64,000 nucleotides of DNA, taken from contig CP120454.1 in assembly GCA_034226945.1 (NCBI GenBank), forward strand, positions 620,001 through 684,000, read 5' to 3'. The notes below the pieces were generated by a model. That model did no database searches. It saw only the letters and a list, made by a program, of their open reading frames with translations, and had not been told where the DNA came from. Below are positions 1,558-9,817 of the stretch, one piece after another. Each line of letters begins with the position of its first letter. The stretch's first letter is position 1. A program made the translations under genes and the position numbers. The stretch comes from Picochlorum sp. SENEW3. Lineage: Eukaryota.

Positions 1558-2837
1558 ATGAAAAAGTGGACTGATAAATTGATAAAGAATTTGGGTGTGG
1601 AGGATGTGAGGAAAAAGGCGTCGTTTCAGGGGCGAGGTCACAAGTTGGGTGGGGCTGAAGACGACGTGTCATCCTCTTCTGAGCAACAGGTATGGTGATA
1701 TTCTTTCTTTCTTTCGTTATTTATATATAAAATTGGTCATGAATTCATGTGTAGAGCCGAGGTCAGGGAAAAGGACCGACCGACAATTCGGGGCACGTTC
1801 AACCACCTCGACAGCAGGGCGGTGCCCCTACTGTTGCATCGAGTCGACACCAGGCTCGGCCTTCCAGGACAGAGGAGCTGATTGATACGAGTATCTCTTC
1901 GATAGGGAATGTGGAATGTGAGTCTGCGATGCGGCATATTGTGGGGGAGGTGAAGGATCATGGAGCAGTATGTTTGAGAACTGTGTATACAATATTGAGC
2001 AACATCCTGGCAACGCCAGAGGATGAGAAGGTTCGAAAGCTACGGTTGCAGAATCCAAAGATTCAGTCATGTATTGTTGATGTGCATGGTGGGATGGAGC
2101 TGTTGCTGGGGTGTGGATTTGAGGTGGTGTTTGAGCCATCATCTAGTGATGCATCACCTCAAGAGGAGGATGCTGGCGAGCATGGGTTTTTGGTTCTTCC
2201 CAAAGATACGGAAGATTCTACCATGGATATACTCCGACGAGTCGTGAGAGCTATTGGCATTGTGCTTGGATTGCCACAGGGGGATCAACAATCATCATCA
2301 ATATCCTCGCGTCCGGCAAATAATAGCATGGATGCCAGTGAGATTCTTGTAGATAGAAATACAATCATAGAGTTACCCACGCCCGTGGATACACATGTTC
2401 CGGACTGGTTTTTCGAACAAAGTAGTGCAGAAATAAAACAAATATATAGAGAAAATCGAGAAAAGATGGAACAGAGCAAAGTGCTCATGACTAGAGCCAT
2501 GAGGGAAAAGCTGCACAGGAGGAATTCCTCAGCACGCCATCATTCTGCAGTCCTCAGGATACGCGTGCGAGCTCCAGAAGGTACCAAGATTGTTGGTGAT
2601 TTTGCGAGAGGGGAGCCAGTTCAAGCGCTCTTTGCCTGGGTATCTGATTGCTTGGTAGATCCCATGCTGGAATTTGATCTCATCATGCCAGATAGAAGCA
2701 AACTTGGTGATGCCAGGTTTGAACTCAAGACACTGACTCAACTTGGTCTCACAGAGTCACAGACACTGAATTTAGCATGGATGGGAGACTCTGTTCGTCT
2801 GATGAAAAACACACCTGCTTTTCGGGAGAATCTGTAA
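1558..2837 (+). CDS. PUB- and UBX-domain p97/CDC48 adaptor (plant PUX2-like)
   Basis: Exon 1558-1689 has SHP-box-like FQGRGHKLG; GT-AG intron 1690-1754; exon 2 is in frame with ORF 1911..2837 and carries PUB motif (ILSNILATPEDEKVRKLRLQNPKI) and UBX-like IRVRAPEG. Confidence 0.8.
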
Positions 2838-2853
2838 CCATCAGATAGTATTA

Positions 2854-3099
2854 TTACAAGGGATTTAGACTGTTCACCAGTCCTGTCGCCCAGACAGCGA
2901 TGCCAGTCACCACTGCCAACCATCCCAACCCACGCCGTCGTTGCTGTCTCACTTCTTCTATAGTGTCCTCTTCCTTTTTCTTCTTCTTGGACACAAAACC
3001 CTTTTTTTCAACAAGCTTTTCAAATGTTTGCTCATCCTGAATCTCCCGTAGCAGTTCCACACCTTCAAATGAAATAAAAACAACGATAAACGACAGGAT
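2854..3099 (-). pseudogene. 3' half of a transposon-interrupted host gene (small membrane protein, probably plastid-targeted)
   Basis: Encodes ILSFIVVFISFEGVELLRE...GLGWLAVVTGIAVWATGLVNSLNPL*; joins in frame with 9139-9438 once the element and one TSD copy are removed. Confidence 0.8.
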
Positions 3100-3102
3100 A
3101 AT

Positions 3103-3145
3103 CATCTGGGAAATCTGAAAATAAGAAATGGACGTCCGATGTAAT
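3103..3145 (+). repeat. Left terminal inverted repeat (43 bp)
   Basis: Exact reverse complement of 9096-9138. Confidence 0.95.
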
Positions 3146-3475
3146 CCAGTGTCCTTTGGACACACATTTCGTGTACGTGGACATGGACGTCTATCGTAGT
3201 ACCCTGTATGACATCTGTCCATCCACCGTCCGAAGGGGCCAAAGCGAGATAGAGGCATGTTTTTTCCATTCGTCGGACAGGTGACACAAACGGCAATGTC
3301 CATGTAGGGATAGGCGTCCACGAATCCAGGTACACCAAATGTAGCCGATTTGGACAGTGGAGTATATTTGGACTATAAATATTATTTTACAGATTACTTT
3401 TCTACATATTGTACAAGGTGACTTGCACCCCTGGGGCGAGCCACTGCGCTGGTATGGAGCAAGTTGGCCCCAAGT

Positions 3476-6400
3476 TCAGCGGACATACCTGTTGTGTATG
3501 AACCATTTCCTGTTGTTGCTGGGGTCTTTTTGCATGTAAATTGGCTCGAGTATATCTACAGCTCTGCATAGATCGGTGAAGACTTCTGTTTGGTTGTTAC
3601 CTTCAGAACTCTGTCTCACAGTCTTCTCCACTTTGAGATATGGCAGGCCAAGGACAGGATGTAAAGTAGCTTTCTTGACCTCTGTAAACCACCTGACGAA
3701 TGCAACCTCTGCATCCTGTCTCCCACTGGTAGATGGAGGCGTGATTCTCACAAAGCAGAGGATCTCAGCATACCATGGCTGGTGTCCATCGCCTTTCACA
3801 GTCACAAAGGATCCCATCGTATCACTGAGCCTATGTATTTTGGATTCGAGCATGCTCCGAGTGAAATTTTGTGGATCGTCTTGGTGCTGTTTGGCAAGGC
3901 GTAGAGTCTCAGGAAATGTGTGTATTCTCCCAAGCAACACTCTGGTGCTTGTTTCACAGCCAGGATACTGTATGAATGGTATGTGTGCTTTCTGAAATAT
4001 CTCAATCTGCAAATTTCATTTGTTGTATTTAATTCGACACTCTCATCATTATGTTGCAGTAAATTGCAAGGCACATACCTGAGTATCAGATGGGATTTGA
4101 AGGTTCCTAGAGGAAGATATTTTGGTCTGGTACAGGATGTTGATGCAGTAAATGAGTCTCTCCATATCAGGTAACCATGCTTGAAGTTTTCGATACGGGG
4201 CGAGATTTTGCAGGTCACCTATAGTACCATGTAGTATGCGCGAATTCGGAACCATCTGAATCCTGTTTGTGCTGAGAGCTCGAATCCTCTGCATTCCAAA
4301 ATGGTGATTGACCTTGGAAAAATGTGTAGAAACAGGCAACAACCAGGACAGCAATAAACCCACCGATGTTTCGTACGTCCGTTTATCATCTTCGTGACAC
4401 TGGATTAGTTCCGCTACCCTGGCCATTTGAGTTGCCTTTGCTAGGGTTTGCTGCATGAATTGGCCATTTCTGTTATTGGTCCACGCGCTTGCAGACTTGA
4501 GGTCTTTGTGTGTTCTCTCGTGATGGTGTGTATCACATACACTGGCACATGCAGATCGTTTGACTTCATCATGGAACTTATAGAGGGCAAACGTTTTCAA
4601 AGTATTGAGGTGCTGCGTGGAGGAAACTTGCTCGAATGCTTTTGCCAGCGCTTGCTTCAATTTCTCAATGGTGGCATGCATTTTTGCCAATGTGTCCTCA
4701 GTGTGATGCTTACACAGTATACGTGCTTCGAGTTCTAAATACACTGCACATTAGGAATAGTAATAATAGTTTGGTGCTTATGAGAATACAGAGAGTAACA
4801 CACACAGTACCTTGTAGCACATCCACTACCGGACGAAGAGCATCATCCACAAGGCAGGCAACAAGTGCCAAACGACACAAATTAGCTGCTTGCTCGCTTG
4901 ATACGGTGATATTTTTATCGGTGGGTAGCTCGAATTTGACAGAGGGCAGGCTATATTCCCTGAGTGGGGATGACTCGTCAATGCTGGCACTCATCTTACT
5001 GAGAAGGTTTGCCTGGTGCTTCCCAGACATCTCCATGCATGTCTTCAGTAGTGATGCTGATTTGAGATTGAAATTGCAAATATATGATCCTACTCCAGAA
5101 TGCAATGTATGGAGCGTGTCAGGTACCACAAGATCAAAGCAATTTGTGAGATGAAAACCAGCAAGGGGCAAGGAAGGAATTCTGCCCTTGGATGCGTCTC
5201 CTTGTCCCTGCATGGTACTCTTTTATTTTGTCAATGCTTTGATTTTTCTCTTTCTTCAGAAGTGATCTAGACAACATACCAGGTAGTAGGTCACGACAGA
5301 TTTGCCTTGCTTTCCAAATGTATCAGCCTCGGGTGTATACAAAAGAAGAGGGTCGTAGGAGAACTCTTTCAGCATCTCTTTCGCCTTTTCTGGGTCTTTA
5401 AATCTCCTAGATGCATCCAAACGTTTTTGAAAGAGGATCTCAGACCTTCTGGTGGGCATGGTATCGATAGACTTGCCCAAGCGCCTTCTACGAACAAGAT
5501 AAGCTGGATCAGGATATGAATCCATGTCGTTTGGACCAGCACTGATGCCGAAAATGGTCTGATATTCCAAGAGGTCTGCAGCATAAAATACTGGTATTGG
5601 AAAGTATGTTTTCGTTTCTCCTTTGGTATTGACTAATCGGACGCCAGTGTGACTGAGATTTTGAATGGTTCGAGTATTAGATATAACGACGTGTACATCA
5701 GCCATTTCTTCAAATTCTTCATGACCATGCCCTTTTTAGGCAGCAAATGCCCCTGTGGCTGTGGCTCAGGAATATGACCAATACATCTGTATGCATTTTG
5801 TGTGAACCTGTCCTCAATAGCTGCTGATGGAAAGAATAGATTCACTGGATACAGAGTCTTTGGGCCCTTCCTTGACAGGGTTTTATCGCTATAGAAAGCT
5901 ATGGGGAGAAGCCGCAACCAGGGTGTATTTCCTGAAGCTTATTCTGGATGTAATAATAAACTTCGTTAGAGACGGCAAAATCATGTGATATCATAGGAAT
6001 CGAACTCACCCAAGTGTCTAACATCCAGTCTCCCCATGCAACTTCACCATAGACTCTTGCTCCACTGCCTGGAATCGTTGCACTTTCTGGGCGCGTCTTG
6101 ATATCTTTAACTTTTAAAAGACATTCCTGAAGCAATGCTTTGGCGTCCGCGATGTGAAATATGACACAATCATTCCCACAGACAGTGAGTCCCAATGTCT
6201 GGACCATGTCCTCTCGTCCAGATTCGGTGCGTAAAAAGTCATTAAAGTCTTCAATACCTCTTCCAAAAGATAAATTTCCATCCAATATGTCCCAGGAAGC
6301 TTTAATTAAACTATCACCCACCTTTTTGGGCAGACGAGGTACAGCCTCAATCAGTGCTCTCTCAAACATGTTCAGGCGAGTCTTGCAGGCCAGAGAATCA

Positions 6401-6733
6401 TCGCATTCAGCAGATTCTTTCTGACAATCATAAATGTCATTGACCTCATCAGGATCACAGGGATCTTCATGGTAGCAATGATTATCATTGTCCTCATGTT
6501 CCCCCCTGTGCATGAACTGGACCCACACGGAGCTTTTTTCCCCCGTACAGTCTTCTTGCATCCCGATCCCGATTGTACATTCTTTTCCTCATAATTGTTG
6601 CTTGTTTGCTGGCTTGGACTATTCGATCTCGCAGTTCCTCATTCGATATGCCAGCACAACCTTTGTAGTGTTGTGTGCCAAGACTCTTAAACCACTTCCC
6701 ACAGTACTGGCATTGAATCCGTTCAGAATCCAT
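3476..6733 (-). CDS. Plavaka-like transposase (spliced, with apparent frameshifts near 5917 and 5660)
   Basis: Chain of minus-strand ORFs with N-terminal zinc-finger-like CQYCGKWFKSLGTQHYKGC and motifs RVYGEVAWGDW, LLPIAFYSDKT..LYPVNL, FPIPVFYAADLLE, PDTLHTLHSGV, CDTHHHERTH and C-terminal WYAEILCF..AFVRWF; several joins have GT-AG boundaries. Confidence 0.8.
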
Positions 6734-7116
6734 GATTTCAAATTATATATTGATGCAAATTTCATCTCGCTCACACAGGGCTACACCTGAGCCATTTCTA
6801 TCGCCCAAACGCTCCTGCATGAAGGTCCAATGTTCTCATTGTGTCACCGTCCGCTGGAGAGGTGCCTGGACCGAATGTTCTTCTTGGTGCCCATGTCGGA
6901 ACCGTTCAAAACATCGCGGAGCAGTATTCTGTGTTTCATTGAAATTTATCGTTATAAATTTCATCAATACTTTTTAATACTTGCGAAGAATCGCAAATCA
7001 GTGTCGAAAAGTCAACACTGTGGGCAAAGCAGCAGTTTTCTTCTCAACTGTCCTGTTCTTTGATCGCAACTCGGTACCTAGGTGTTCCTTCGTGTTCTGA
7101 ACCGAACACATCTATA

Positions 7117-8429
7117 ATGATAACCAGTTCATCAAAAAACGACCAAGGGACTGCGGTTCCGCAAGTTTCTCACCAAGAAACGAAAAAGCGCGGGCGTGGT
7201 CGCCCACCCGGGAGCAAGAACAAGAAACCTGCAGTGAGCAATCAACAGGATGCTCATATAAAGAGGGTGAATTATTTTGATGAAATCCTCAATATAAATG
7301 CAACGAATGAGACAGTGTTGCCTTCGAATGACCGCCTCCTTGTTCAACCGTACTACAAGGTGGACCAAAAAGGAAAACCATCAAGTGATTCGCAACAATC
7401 TAAACGCAGAGACAACGATTCGGACGAATCAGATCCTGATGAGAATGTCGAGTTATCTGATCCAACCAGCCAACCTCCAAGAGGGGATGGATACAGTGAT
7501 ATCTTGCATGAAGACTTTGCAAACCATGAAACAAGAGTACCTGGGGCACTCAATGGTACGAATGAAATTAAGAATATTCTTTTAAATATATCAGGGATAC
7601 TCAGTGAAATCAAGGAAGTCGTAGTTAATGGCAAAGCAAAAGGAAAGAGCAAAGTTCCGCTCAGAAAGGTATGCCATTGAATGTTTCTCTTCAACAGTAT
7701 TCTCGTAATGGCCGTTCAACTGGACTGCAGAATGAAGCAGATAATAAGACGATCAAGCAGGCAATCATGCATGTGGTACTGGGAGATAATGTAGATGGCA
7801 TTTACCCTTCAACTCGCATGAAGGAAAGCATTGCTAAGCTTCTTGAGGAGAAGACCACGCAACAGGAAATTCAAACTTTGTTACGCCAAAGAATACGACC
7901 TTTTCTGAGCAAAAGATGTGAAGAGGCATTTTTAAAGGTGTATGGCAGTCATGATGACTACAAGGATGGTATTTCTGTTTCGCCGGAAAGGGTTTGGCAG
8001 TCACTGAAGATACGAGGGAGGAGCTTCTCAAAGGTACTCTGCGTAGCAATGGTAATATATACTCAAACTCATGATCACGTTGTTTGCGTGCAGGTCTGGA
8101 TAAGGATAAGCCCCAGTACAGATTCCGCAATGACGATCCATTTGGGAACAGACTTTTCAGAAAATATCTGGTAGATCTGCAAGGTATCTATCTGGAGGCA
8201 TGTGGCCTGGGATTCAGTGATTTTCAATCTCTCGATTTTCAAGAAGAGAAAGCCGATTATCATATCAGAACAATGCCTCTGCCAATCCTGGCATACTGCA
8301 TGGCCAAGGTACGATGTATATTGAGATTGGTGACCATGTCATGTCAACACACAGGCGGTCTCTGCGTTTCAAATCGACAAGAGGGTTTCACCACGACGTG
8401 GCTCTTCTTCGGGAGTGCCCTCTGACTGA
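7117..8429 (+). CDS. Transposon accessory protein with AT-hook (spliced; exon structure uncertain)
   Basis: KKRGRGRPPGSKNK AT-hook in ORF 7060..7680; ORFs 7671..8174 and 8084..8425 can be linked by GT-AG introns (e.g. 7669-7730); lies inside the TIRs, divergent from the transposase. Confidence 0.6.
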
Positions 8430-8937
8430 TTTGAAGGAGAGCTGTCAAGAAGAACTTTGACAAGCTATGCCTGAGGCAATGGTGCAAAAGCACAATTGTT
8501 TCATCAGCAGAGTGTCTTGCTGTGGGATGTTTGCATGATATTTCAACACATAATTTTCGAGCATCATTAATGATACACGTGTGTGTTTGTGTAGTTTGAG
8601 GCCATACTTGTGGGGGAAGTTATCAATGATGCAGATTACAAGGCCATGCTCAAAAGCCTGAGGAATCTGCGGAGCAGGTATATCAGATTGCCACCAGAAG
8701 AACATCTTAGGTTCCCATTCCTCGACCACACCAGTGGTAATAGGTCGTGAGTGACAATGAGAATGTGTCGTGTTTGTAGGTCTCCTTCTTATTATCAGTG
8801 AGAGTCTACAGGTTTCCACATAATGTGGCCACATAATGCTACTCTGGTGTGCGTCATCACACCTCTCTGTGGATACCAGATGTATGTATGAGTACAGATA
8901 TTATATATTCAGTGTAAATGTACAGTAGTGTATCGAG

Positions 8938-8992
8938 GCGTCCATATAGCGTCCAAATAGCGTCTATATAGCGTCCAAATAACGTCCAAACA
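8938..8992 (+). repeat. Subterminal tandem repeat, 5 x 11 bp (GCGTCCAAATA consensus)
   Basis: gcgtccatata gcgtccaaata gcgtctatata gcgtccaaata acgtccaaaca; shares the CGTCC core with the TIR. Confidence 0.85.
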
Positions 8993-9095
8993 GTGCACAG
9001 GAACGCCAGTATCCGTGTATAAAAATAGTAGTACATTTGGACATCAACGTCAAATTCTTATATCTTAAATTAGTGTGTCGACAGAAGAATTGTGT

Positions 9096-9138
9096 ATTAC
9101 ATCGGACGTCCATTTCTTATTTTCAGATTTCCCAGATG
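9096..9138 (-). repeat. Right terminal inverted repeat (43 bp)
   Basis: Exact reverse complement of 3103-3145. Confidence 0.95.
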
Positions 9139-9438
9139 AATGGCCCCTGTGTACAAATTATCTATCGTCACAAGATCAGGAAACATCAGACGAGCCTCTG
9201 CATTGACATCAAATGTCCCAGGAAGAGGTGCTTCCTTCATCTGAGGTGGAAGCTGCTGTGGACGATCCAGCAGTCTTGGAAAGTCTGGAACCAAGGATGC
9301 CAGCGGCATGTATATAGAAGAGGGCACGCTTCTACAGATGAAGACCGCTGATGAGCCGCTTCGCATGCCATATAGTCTGCGCGACGATAGTTGTTGAGAA
9401 TTCGCAATGCTCTTCGAAGGGTGGAATAGAATTTTCAT
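9139..9438 (-). pseudogene. 5' half of the transposon-interrupted host gene
   Basis: ATG 9438, MKILFHPSKS...NLYTGAI, Ser/Arg-rich transit-peptide-like N-terminus; continues in frame at 3099. Confidence 0.75.
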
Positions 9439-9817
9439 GTCTCTTTCACTACTCAAATATGTCCTTGCGTTGGTTCTCAGTTATACAGCCATCCACACCC
9501 ATGATTTATTGGACACTTGTAGTAATATTGTTATTATTCAGGATGAAGAGATTTCATATCGTGACTATTTGTTGTTCAAAAACAAGGAGGAAACTCTCTG
9601 TAATATGATACTTTTAGTAGAATACATTTCACTCGTTTTGTTTTTGTACACAAGGCATCCAGATGTCGCATCCACCAGTAGTTGTGTTTTATACTTAATT
9701 TCGATACAAAAAACACCTCCATGCATGCATCTATTCATAGGGTATCTGCAGGACGCTGGAGTAGATTATTCGTATTATTGGTACAAGAAGAAAATGCCAT
9801 TGCAATTCTAGGACGAT

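Follow-up and report, generated by a model that had tools for sequence, protein, structure and literature searches.

Does a 6-kb insert with inverted ends in a compact algal genome represent a complete transposon, to which family does it belong, and has it moved in recent times? The question is raised by a stretch of 64 kb from Picochlorum sp. SENEW3 (the window, in the numbering of which all positions are given here), for which an original prediction, made from the letters alone, had described a young, Plavaka-like element with two genes. We conclude, with a probability of about 0.85, that positions 3103-9138 are one copy of a low-copy, autonomous-type Plavaka transposon (CMC/CMCT, with PlavakaB-like ends) that was recently inserted by cut-and-paste into an exon of the host.

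Ends of the Element and the Empty Site

The element comprises 6,036 bp (3103-9138) and has AAT on either side. Its two arms, the terminal inverted repeats (TIRs), are identical at 45 of 46 positions, the outer 43 without exception, so that the perfect 43-bp TIRs of the original prediction are borne out by the arm comparison. The left junction reads ...GATAAT/CATCTGGG... and the right junction ...CCCAGATG/AATGGCC..., and each TIR contains the palindrome GGACGTCC. A 39-nt terminal pattern has two matches in the window, one at either end of the element; in 100 dinucleotide-preserving shuffles its mean number was 0.00 and none had two matches. The ends are CATCT..AGATG and thus, as had been said from the outset, unlike CACTA (CATCTGGG...CCCAGATG).

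Contigs of four public runs (X1, X2, X12 and X17, of which X2 is a metagenome, DNA) were aligned to positions 2600-9600. A contig of X2, the flanks of which have more than 99% identity with the window, passes from 3099 straight to 9139 and skips 6,039 bases (6,036 + 3, three letters at the joint being ambiguous), and a contig of X12 has the same joint. In X17 a contig runs up to 3102 and then continues as the sequence of 9142-9157. The empty locus therefore carries one AAT in these three runs, by which both boundaries and the 3-bp target-site duplication (TSD) are proven. With this the AAT duplication (for this copy) and the youth of the insertion, both claimed before, are confirmed: the insertion is recent and the element is absent from the site in close relatives.

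In X1 the site is filled. Contigs covering 2600-3130 and 9110-9600 span both junctions with 0 differences over 1,022 flank bases, and since the depth of the element is 177-178 versus 56.5-57.9 for the flanks, X1 has about three copies. Contigs with unrelated flanks begin exactly at 3103 (X2, X17) or at 9138 (X1, X12); the other copies therefore have the same termini. Of the expectation that other copies would show the same boundaries and each its own TSD, the first part holds, while the pairing of flanks with a TSD is limited to the copy in the window.

Two contig structures within the element were seen besides. One contig of X2 (depth 27) joins 3876 to 6329, skipping 2,452 bases, possibly from an internally deleted derivative; the joint is weak, its shorter side having only 25 letters. 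At 6402-6518 one contig each in X1 and X2 (depth 54-58, about one copy) has 115 bases replaced by 12, and these 12 match nearby sequence in reverse complement, through either a rearrangement specific to one copy or an artefact of the assembly graph. Among metagenome contigs the 23-nt start of the TIR had 0 matches, and a metagenome relative of the element consists of one 2.9-kb partial locus (34% identity) without recognisable ends.

When 3103-9141 is removed in silico, one minus-strand open reading frame (ORF) of 195 amino acids is obtained that runs across the junction (...NLYTGAI/ILSFIVVF...) and aligns there without a gap with all three homologues found (P0029-P0031, 51-53% identity). The element is inserted into a coding exon of the host. 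The homologues are small Picochlorum-type proteins, for which no Pfam family was found above the cut-off. The coordinates of all features are collected in Table 1.

Table 1. Features of the element and of its insertion site (window numbering)
Feature	Position	Strand	Basis
Interrupted host exon, downstream part	2857..3102	-	in silico excision, homologue alignment
Left TSD copy (AAT)	3100..3102		sequence; empty-site joint with 3 ambiguous letters in X2, X12
Left TIR, 5'-CATCTGGG...	3103..3148	+	arm comparison, shuffle test, contig ends
Left subterminal region, CGTC[CT]A / GTCCAAA motifs in mixed orientation	3149..3475		motif count
Plavaka-type DDE transposase gene	3476..6733	-	tblastn of P0012, P0004, P0006; exon model; Pfam
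Transposase exons	6733-5280, 5207-4811, 4743-4079, 4006-3476	-	exon model
Intronic indel (transposase intron), contigs +T	5242		4/4 runs
Frame break 3, T4 on plus strand, contigs T5	5658..5659	-	4/4 runs
Frame break 2, one base missing, not a homopolymer, contigs +T	5912..5913	-	X1, X2, X17
Frame break 1, 6 C on plus strand (6 G in gene), contigs 5	6501..6506	-	X1, X2
Spacer between the divergent start codons, 383 bp	6734..7116		gene positions
Accessory gene 2, divergent from transposase	7117..8750	+	tblastn of P0019, P0021, P0017; X12 splices
Gene 2 exons	7117-7668, 7731-8033, 8094-8308, 8595-8750	+	tblastn, X12 joints
Gene 2 frame break, contigs +G	7984/7985	+	4/4 runs
Subterminal tandem array, 11 bp x 4.8, consensus GCGTCCAAATA	8938..8990	+	TRF scores 78 and 88
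Right TIR	9093..9138	-	arm comparison, shuffle test, contig ends
Right TSD copy (AAT)	9139..9141		sequence; empty-site contigs
Interrupted host exon, upstream part; small conserved Picochlorum protein of about 210 amino acids	9139..9480	-	in silico excision, homologue alignment

The Transposase Gene

The spliced minus-strand transposase of the original prediction was located, together with its motifs, by tblastn of the full-length homologues P0012 (P. renovo), P0004 (SENEW3, another locus) and P0006 (BPE23). With three frame breaks read through (see below) the product has about 1,015 amino acids. The three introns (5279-5208, 4810-4744 and 4078-4007) are of the GT..AG type and are based on the stop codons that they contain and on gene models from three species; from 5705 onwards the exon model equals the public SENEW3 protein P0010 letter for letter.

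The motifs are LLPIAFYSDKT (5911-5879), FPIPVFYAADLLE (5603-5559), PDTLHTLHSG (5126-5094) and THHHERTH (4534-4502). They contain the catalytic residues D (5887-5885), D (5576-5574) and E (4519-4517). In a first alignment (A1) the two D columns (FYSDKT and AADLLE) are invariant and the E of HERTH is kept in 7 of 13 rows, namely those aligned at that column. In a larger one (A3) 27 rows have a letter in this column, which is E in 21 of them, and four of the six exceptions (P0033, P0067, P0106 and P0079) have other residues where the alignment puts the end of the row. As judged from these alignments, the DDE triad is conserved alongside strong Plavaka proteins. The transposase model of BPE23 (P0006) has N at the first catalytic D and several F/Y-to-S changes; by its sequence the BPE23 copy looks inactivated.

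At the N-terminus the transposase has a CxxC...H...C finger (6733-6656) with weak matches to Pfam zinc fingers, and its C-terminal part of about 250 amino acids resembles the C-terminal part of Plavaka/DUF6830 proteins (Atlas models, TM 0.58-0.63).

For the affiliation Pfam was consulted. Five of six family proteins score above the cut-off of 26.3 bits for Plavaka (PF18759), namely P0001 (56.5 bits), P0012 (51.1), P0004 (49.9), P0006 (36.3) and P0002 (30.8), the one below being P0010, an N-terminally truncated model. Near-identical full-length copies from three Picochlorum species are thus above the cut-off, and the Pfam check bears out the Plavaka identity. No Pfam transposase family other than Plavaka was found, either with the 11 ORFs of the window (E 0.1) or with the six full-length proteins (E 0.01).

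An exhaustive HMMER search of 1.84 billion representatives yielded 64 proteins with E <= 0.001, 21 of them at <= 1e-10 and 9 at <= 1e-30. When 22 of these relatives were scanned against Pfam, 13 matched Plavaka, 12 of them above the cut-off. The relatives of named origin comprise a second P. renovo family as well as Chlorella sp. A99 and Trebouxia sp. With regard to a RAG1/Transib-like fold, a PDB sequence profile search with A3 gave chance matches only (best E 0.36). The second Plavaka-like family in Picochlorum-type data (P0035 from P. renovo and P0033/P0038), which is about 40% identical, has the same N-terminal finger and the same C-terminal domain.

The Accessory Gene and the Subterminal Repeats

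Gene 2 has homologues of 408 and 406 amino acids (P0019 and P0021), which map to the window in four exons; the intact gene codes for 408 amino acids. With an alternative donor at 7968 the model yields the public protein P0017 exactly. In X12 all three introns of gene 2 appear as GT..AG joints within one contig, and the start of this spliced contig lies at 6865 or upstream. That X12 is RNA is only a guess, but its spliced gene 2 contigs would be hard to account for in another way. The gene adjoins the transposase gene at all five annotated loci (three in SENEW3, one in BPE23 and one in P. renovo) and is therefore part of the element, which, with the gene at 7117-8750, substantiates the earlier description of a two-gene element whose second gene is divergent.

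Within 7183-7230 gene 2 encodes the motif RGRGRPPGSK, which is AT-hook-like, and the protein may be a DNA-binding helper acting at the subterminal repeats. No Pfam family matched above the cut-off, the match to AT_hook being non-significant (E about 2), and a single-sequence AlphaFold model had a pLDDT of 36 and was unusable. Feature matches in the Atlas (0.90) were to unnamed clusters and structure matches had TM <= 0.29, both of them leads only. The spacer between the two divergent start codons is presumably a bidirectional promoter.

The subterminal repeats are of two kinds. The array at 8938-8990 is the highest-scoring tandem repeat in the window. The motif CGTC[CT]A, picked after inspection, has 10 sites in 761 subterminal bases versus 0.51 expected from its density outside the element, four of them within 3103-3475. 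Subterminal repeats and a 3-bp TSD, which the original prediction had named as CACTA hallmarks, are thus both present.

Frame Breaks and Alternative Explanations

Several observations weigh against our conclusion. Only one of the 11 ORF pieces of the window matches Plavaka, with 19 bits and thus below the cut-off, and the Plavaka match spans only positions 66-238 of the 325 of the profile. The Picochlorum transposases lack the CxxC and HxxxH of CMCT (see below). A left and a right flank with a TSD between which the element lies are available from this copy alone, the other copies giving single flanks. No sense-spliced transposase RNA was seen among the contigs of the runs, of which X12 is only guessed to be RNA, and the sole splice within the transposase gene runs on the opposite strand. 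As assembled, by tblastn, the transposase frame has three single-base breaks and that of gene 2 has one. Within the element, 11 substitutions separate contigs of X1 from the window, from which it is evident that the copies really differ. Finally, contigs drop minority variants, and indels really present in this copy are still possible.

The splice on the opposite strand is an observation of its own. A contig of X12 that retains the sense introns 1 and 2 skips 81 nt (3979-4059, GT..AG on the plus strand). The same junction is found in the ORF P0008 of an MMETSP transcript, the other ORF of which (P0013) ends in the retained intron 1. Apparently an antisense transcript that spans the 3' half of the transposase gene has been spliced here, the alternative being a deletion variant at the DNA level.

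The frame breaks divide the description of a complete two-gene element into a part that stands (ends, TSD and both genes) and a part that does not, as neither gene is an intact ORF as assembled. The three frame switches of the transposase are not explained by introns. At the four breaks and at an indel in a transposase intron, all covering contigs carry the frame-preserving length (in 4/4, 4/4, 3/3, 2/2 and 4/4 runs), X12 and X17 having no cover at 6501-6506 and X12 none at 5912. Each coding indel, taken as in the contigs, gives back the frame of the homologues, which read ...HPGCELLPIAF in full length across break 2. Homopolymer runs account for four of the five sites.

The other annotated SENEW3 loci show the same lesions in combinations at odds with their substitutions: the extra G at 6501-6506 is common to the locus of P0004, the missing base at 5912 to that of P0001, and the lesion in gene 2 probably to that of P0018. 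In unique host DNA ORFs are unbroken up to 1,191 amino acids. A published SENEW3 assembly is, according to the available part of its description, a nanopore assembly with subsequent short-read polishing (PMC11092101); if the window stems from such an assembly, indel errors would survive in multi-copy DNA. We consider it fairly probable that the four coding frame breaks are residual long-read consensus errors in a multi-copy region.

The alternative that survives best shares the element with this explanation and takes the breaks as real: the copy would be a decaying, non-autonomous pseudogene that needs the proteins of another copy. The breaks stand in the assembled sequence and public gene models are built around them (P0010 starts after break 3 and P0017 uses the alternative donor); the 11 substitutions in X1 are real differences between copies, and dead copies of the family exist, as the N for the first catalytic D in BPE23 indicates. 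These points have to be set against the perfect 43-bp TIRs and the site that is empty in strains with flanks more than 99% identical, both signs of a young insertion, and against the ratio of 5 indels to 11 substitutions, which is high for real mutation. Four of the five indels are changes of homopolymer length, the indels common to several loci are combined in ways that the substitutions do not bear out, and errors of this kind would persist in multi-copy DNA if the assembly is the nanopore one with short-read polishing whose accessible description was cited above (PMC11092101). A pseudogene has to be taken seriously, as a possibility to which we give about one third of the weight.

That the element is an ordinary EnSpm/CACTA transposon rather than a Plavaka is very improbable. 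It has the 3-bp TSD, the subterminal repeats and the two genes of En/Spm, and Plavaka and EnSpm transposases are recognisably similar, as stated in the part of Kojima 2025 at hand (PMC12730594); but its ends are CATCT and not CACTA or CAC, Plavaka is the sole Pfam transposase family to match (at the E values given above), and the C-terminal domain matches Plavaka proteins.

The view that the inverted repeats are due to chance or to assembly, and the two genes ordinary host genes, has the low copy number and nothing else in its favour and can be dismissed, since the termini have an expectation of 0.00 in shuffles, the site is exactly empty in three runs, further copies in different surroundings have identical end points, and the X1 contigs span both junctions; the contigs of the runs by themselves already refute it.

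Missing Zinc Ligands

The accessible text of Kojima 2025 lists CxxC and HxxxH ligands for all CMCT transposases and reports them as common to EnSpm, Mirage, Chapaev, Transib, Plavaka and RAG1 (PMC12730594). We compared the corresponding columns in a MAFFT alignment of 35 rows, in which the three Picochlorum rows are near-copies of one another. C..C is present in 7 of the 26 rows with letters in the CxxC columns, all seven being strong fungal-type Plavaka. The other 19, among them the three from Picochlorum and those from Chlorella and Trebouxia, are without it, 17 of them with D at the first position. H..H is present in 6 of 22 rows, Picochlorum having F..K.

For a tree of the core 24 of the 35 rows were kept, 11 with fewer than 230 core residues being dropped. 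In this unrooted tree the sequences with CxxC/HxxxH form one clade (100/99), within which one nested row has lost the Cys pair, and the Picochlorum group lies apart from it (98/97 with its nearest relatives). Because the ligands are present in other CMCT lineages we infer that they were lost rather than gained, with the reservation that the tree is unrooted. That the Picochlorum element belongs to a still mobile Plavaka lineage which has lost all four zinc ligands, with a conserved Asp in the place of the first Cys, and relies on a new AT-hook-like helper is a tentative idea that we regard as rather unlikely to hold in full.

Host and Genome Setting

The green-algal host named by the original prediction is confirmed by the SENEW3 proteins P0010 (..._00001243) and P0017 (..._00001244), whose sequences follow letter for letter from the window. 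The G+C content of the window is 45%, and long ORFs (up to 1,191 amino acids) are densely packed on both of its strands; tRNA genes and Rfam families were not found in it at threshold. DNA transposons make up 0.35% of the SENEW3 genome according to the part of the genome paper available to us (PMC11092101).

The proteins P0019 and P0021 of the element are 96% identical between SENEW3 and P. renovo, whereas the host protein that is interrupted shares no more than 51-53% identity with its homologues from other Picochlorum-type sources. The identity of the element proteins might reflect close kinship of the hosts or horizontal spread.

Proposed Mechanism and Significance

In the mechanism that we propose, the N-terminal zinc finger of the transposase would recognise the 43-bp TIRs and the CGTCCA-type subterminal repeats, in which the AT-hook-like accessory protein would probably assist, as TnpA does in En/Spm. 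The transposase would then cut the element out and integrate it with a 3-bp stagger. Both genes would be driven by the divergent 383-bp spacer.

For a Plavaka family of Picochlorum the exact ends, the TSD, the gene content and the intron structure are now given. In the databases the genes of the element are annotated as hypothetical proteins only, split or truncated around the frame breaks. The insertion documents recent mobility in a very compact, repeat-poor genome, where a small conserved gene is disrupted by it and closely related strains lack it. It also serves as a warning that the assembly probably retains indel errors in its multi-copy parts. Modest, testable leads on the working of CMC/RAG1-like transposases come from the helper gene and from the absence of the zinc ligands; should a copy prove intact and active, nature would have provided a test of whether transposition can do without the RAG1-type zinc module. 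An intact and active copy would furthermore be a native, fully delimited, exon-hitting cut-and-paste vector in a 13-Mb biotechnology alga and could allow insertional mutagenesis in Picochlorum.

Comparison with Known Systems

The closest published system is PlavakaB of Agaricomycotina fungi. In the part of Kojima 2025 at hand (PMC12730594) PlavakaB is given termini 5'-CATCA..TGATG-3' with TSDs of 2 or 3 bp, and PlavakaA termini TGT..ACA with TSDs of 2 bp. With PlavakaB the Picochlorum element has in common the PF18759 DDE transposase, the 5'-CATC start, a TSD within the range of 2-3 bp and a long C-terminal region of the kind common to Plavaka/DUF6830 proteins. Because of these similar termini and TSDs, the CATC... 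ends, which the original prediction had stressed as non-CACTA, are no oddity. The differences are the fifth terminal base (T in CATCT versus A in CATCA, four of five bases being equal), the absence of a TET/JBP gene in place of which Picochlorum has an AT-hook-like accessory gene of no known family, the absence of CxxC/HxxxH, the partial Pfam match and the green-algal host, as far as the available text of that paper allows the comparison.

Plavaka candidates have been reported in red algae, chlorophytes and streptophytes (PMC13519894), and, in the trebouxiophyte Auxenochlorella, EnSpm-Plavaka elements that are potentially active and whose insertions are polymorphic between haplotypes (bioRxiv 10.1101/2025.02.07.637104), both reports being available in part. 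The latter resemble the Picochlorum family in their trebouxiophyte/chlorophyte host with a streamlined genome, in being potentially active and in their polymorphic insertions; for neither group are termini, TSD and gene content given in the available portions, none of which connects Picochlorum with Plavaka, and an overlap with the Picochlorum family is possible. Since Plavaka is already reported in chlorophytes, the novelty is below that claimed at the outset. The view of Plavaka as mainly fungal, with a poorly described algal family, needs correction with regard to the chlorophytes and retains its value in that termini, TSD and genes are now defined. Among the matches listed for Plavaka or Picochlorum transposons there was no published description of the Picochlorum element, Repbase/Dfam and the supplements of the preprints being outside the scope of that search.

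The giant Plavaka elements of the red alga Bostrychia have 17-19 kb and three accessory genes, PAG1-3 (methylase/SET, ParB-like/oxygenase), and are massively amplified, as stated in the accessible part of the preprint (bioRxiv 10.1101/2025.02.11.637652). Common to both is a Plavaka-lineage transposase in Archaeplastida that is accompanied by accessory genes. In contrast to these, the Picochlorum element has 6 kb, one unrelated accessory gene and about three copies.

Maize En/Spm is a single, alternatively spliced unit. Its likeness to the Picochlorum element lies in DDE cut-and-paste transposition, the 3-bp TSD, short subterminal repeats and two proteins, one of them a presumed DNA-binding helper. 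The Picochlorum element differs from it by non-CACTA ends, by the lack of a Pfam match to CACTA transposase families and by two divergent genes in place of the single unit. It is a further member of Plavaka in green algae, with a lineage-specific helper gene, and of modest interest as such.

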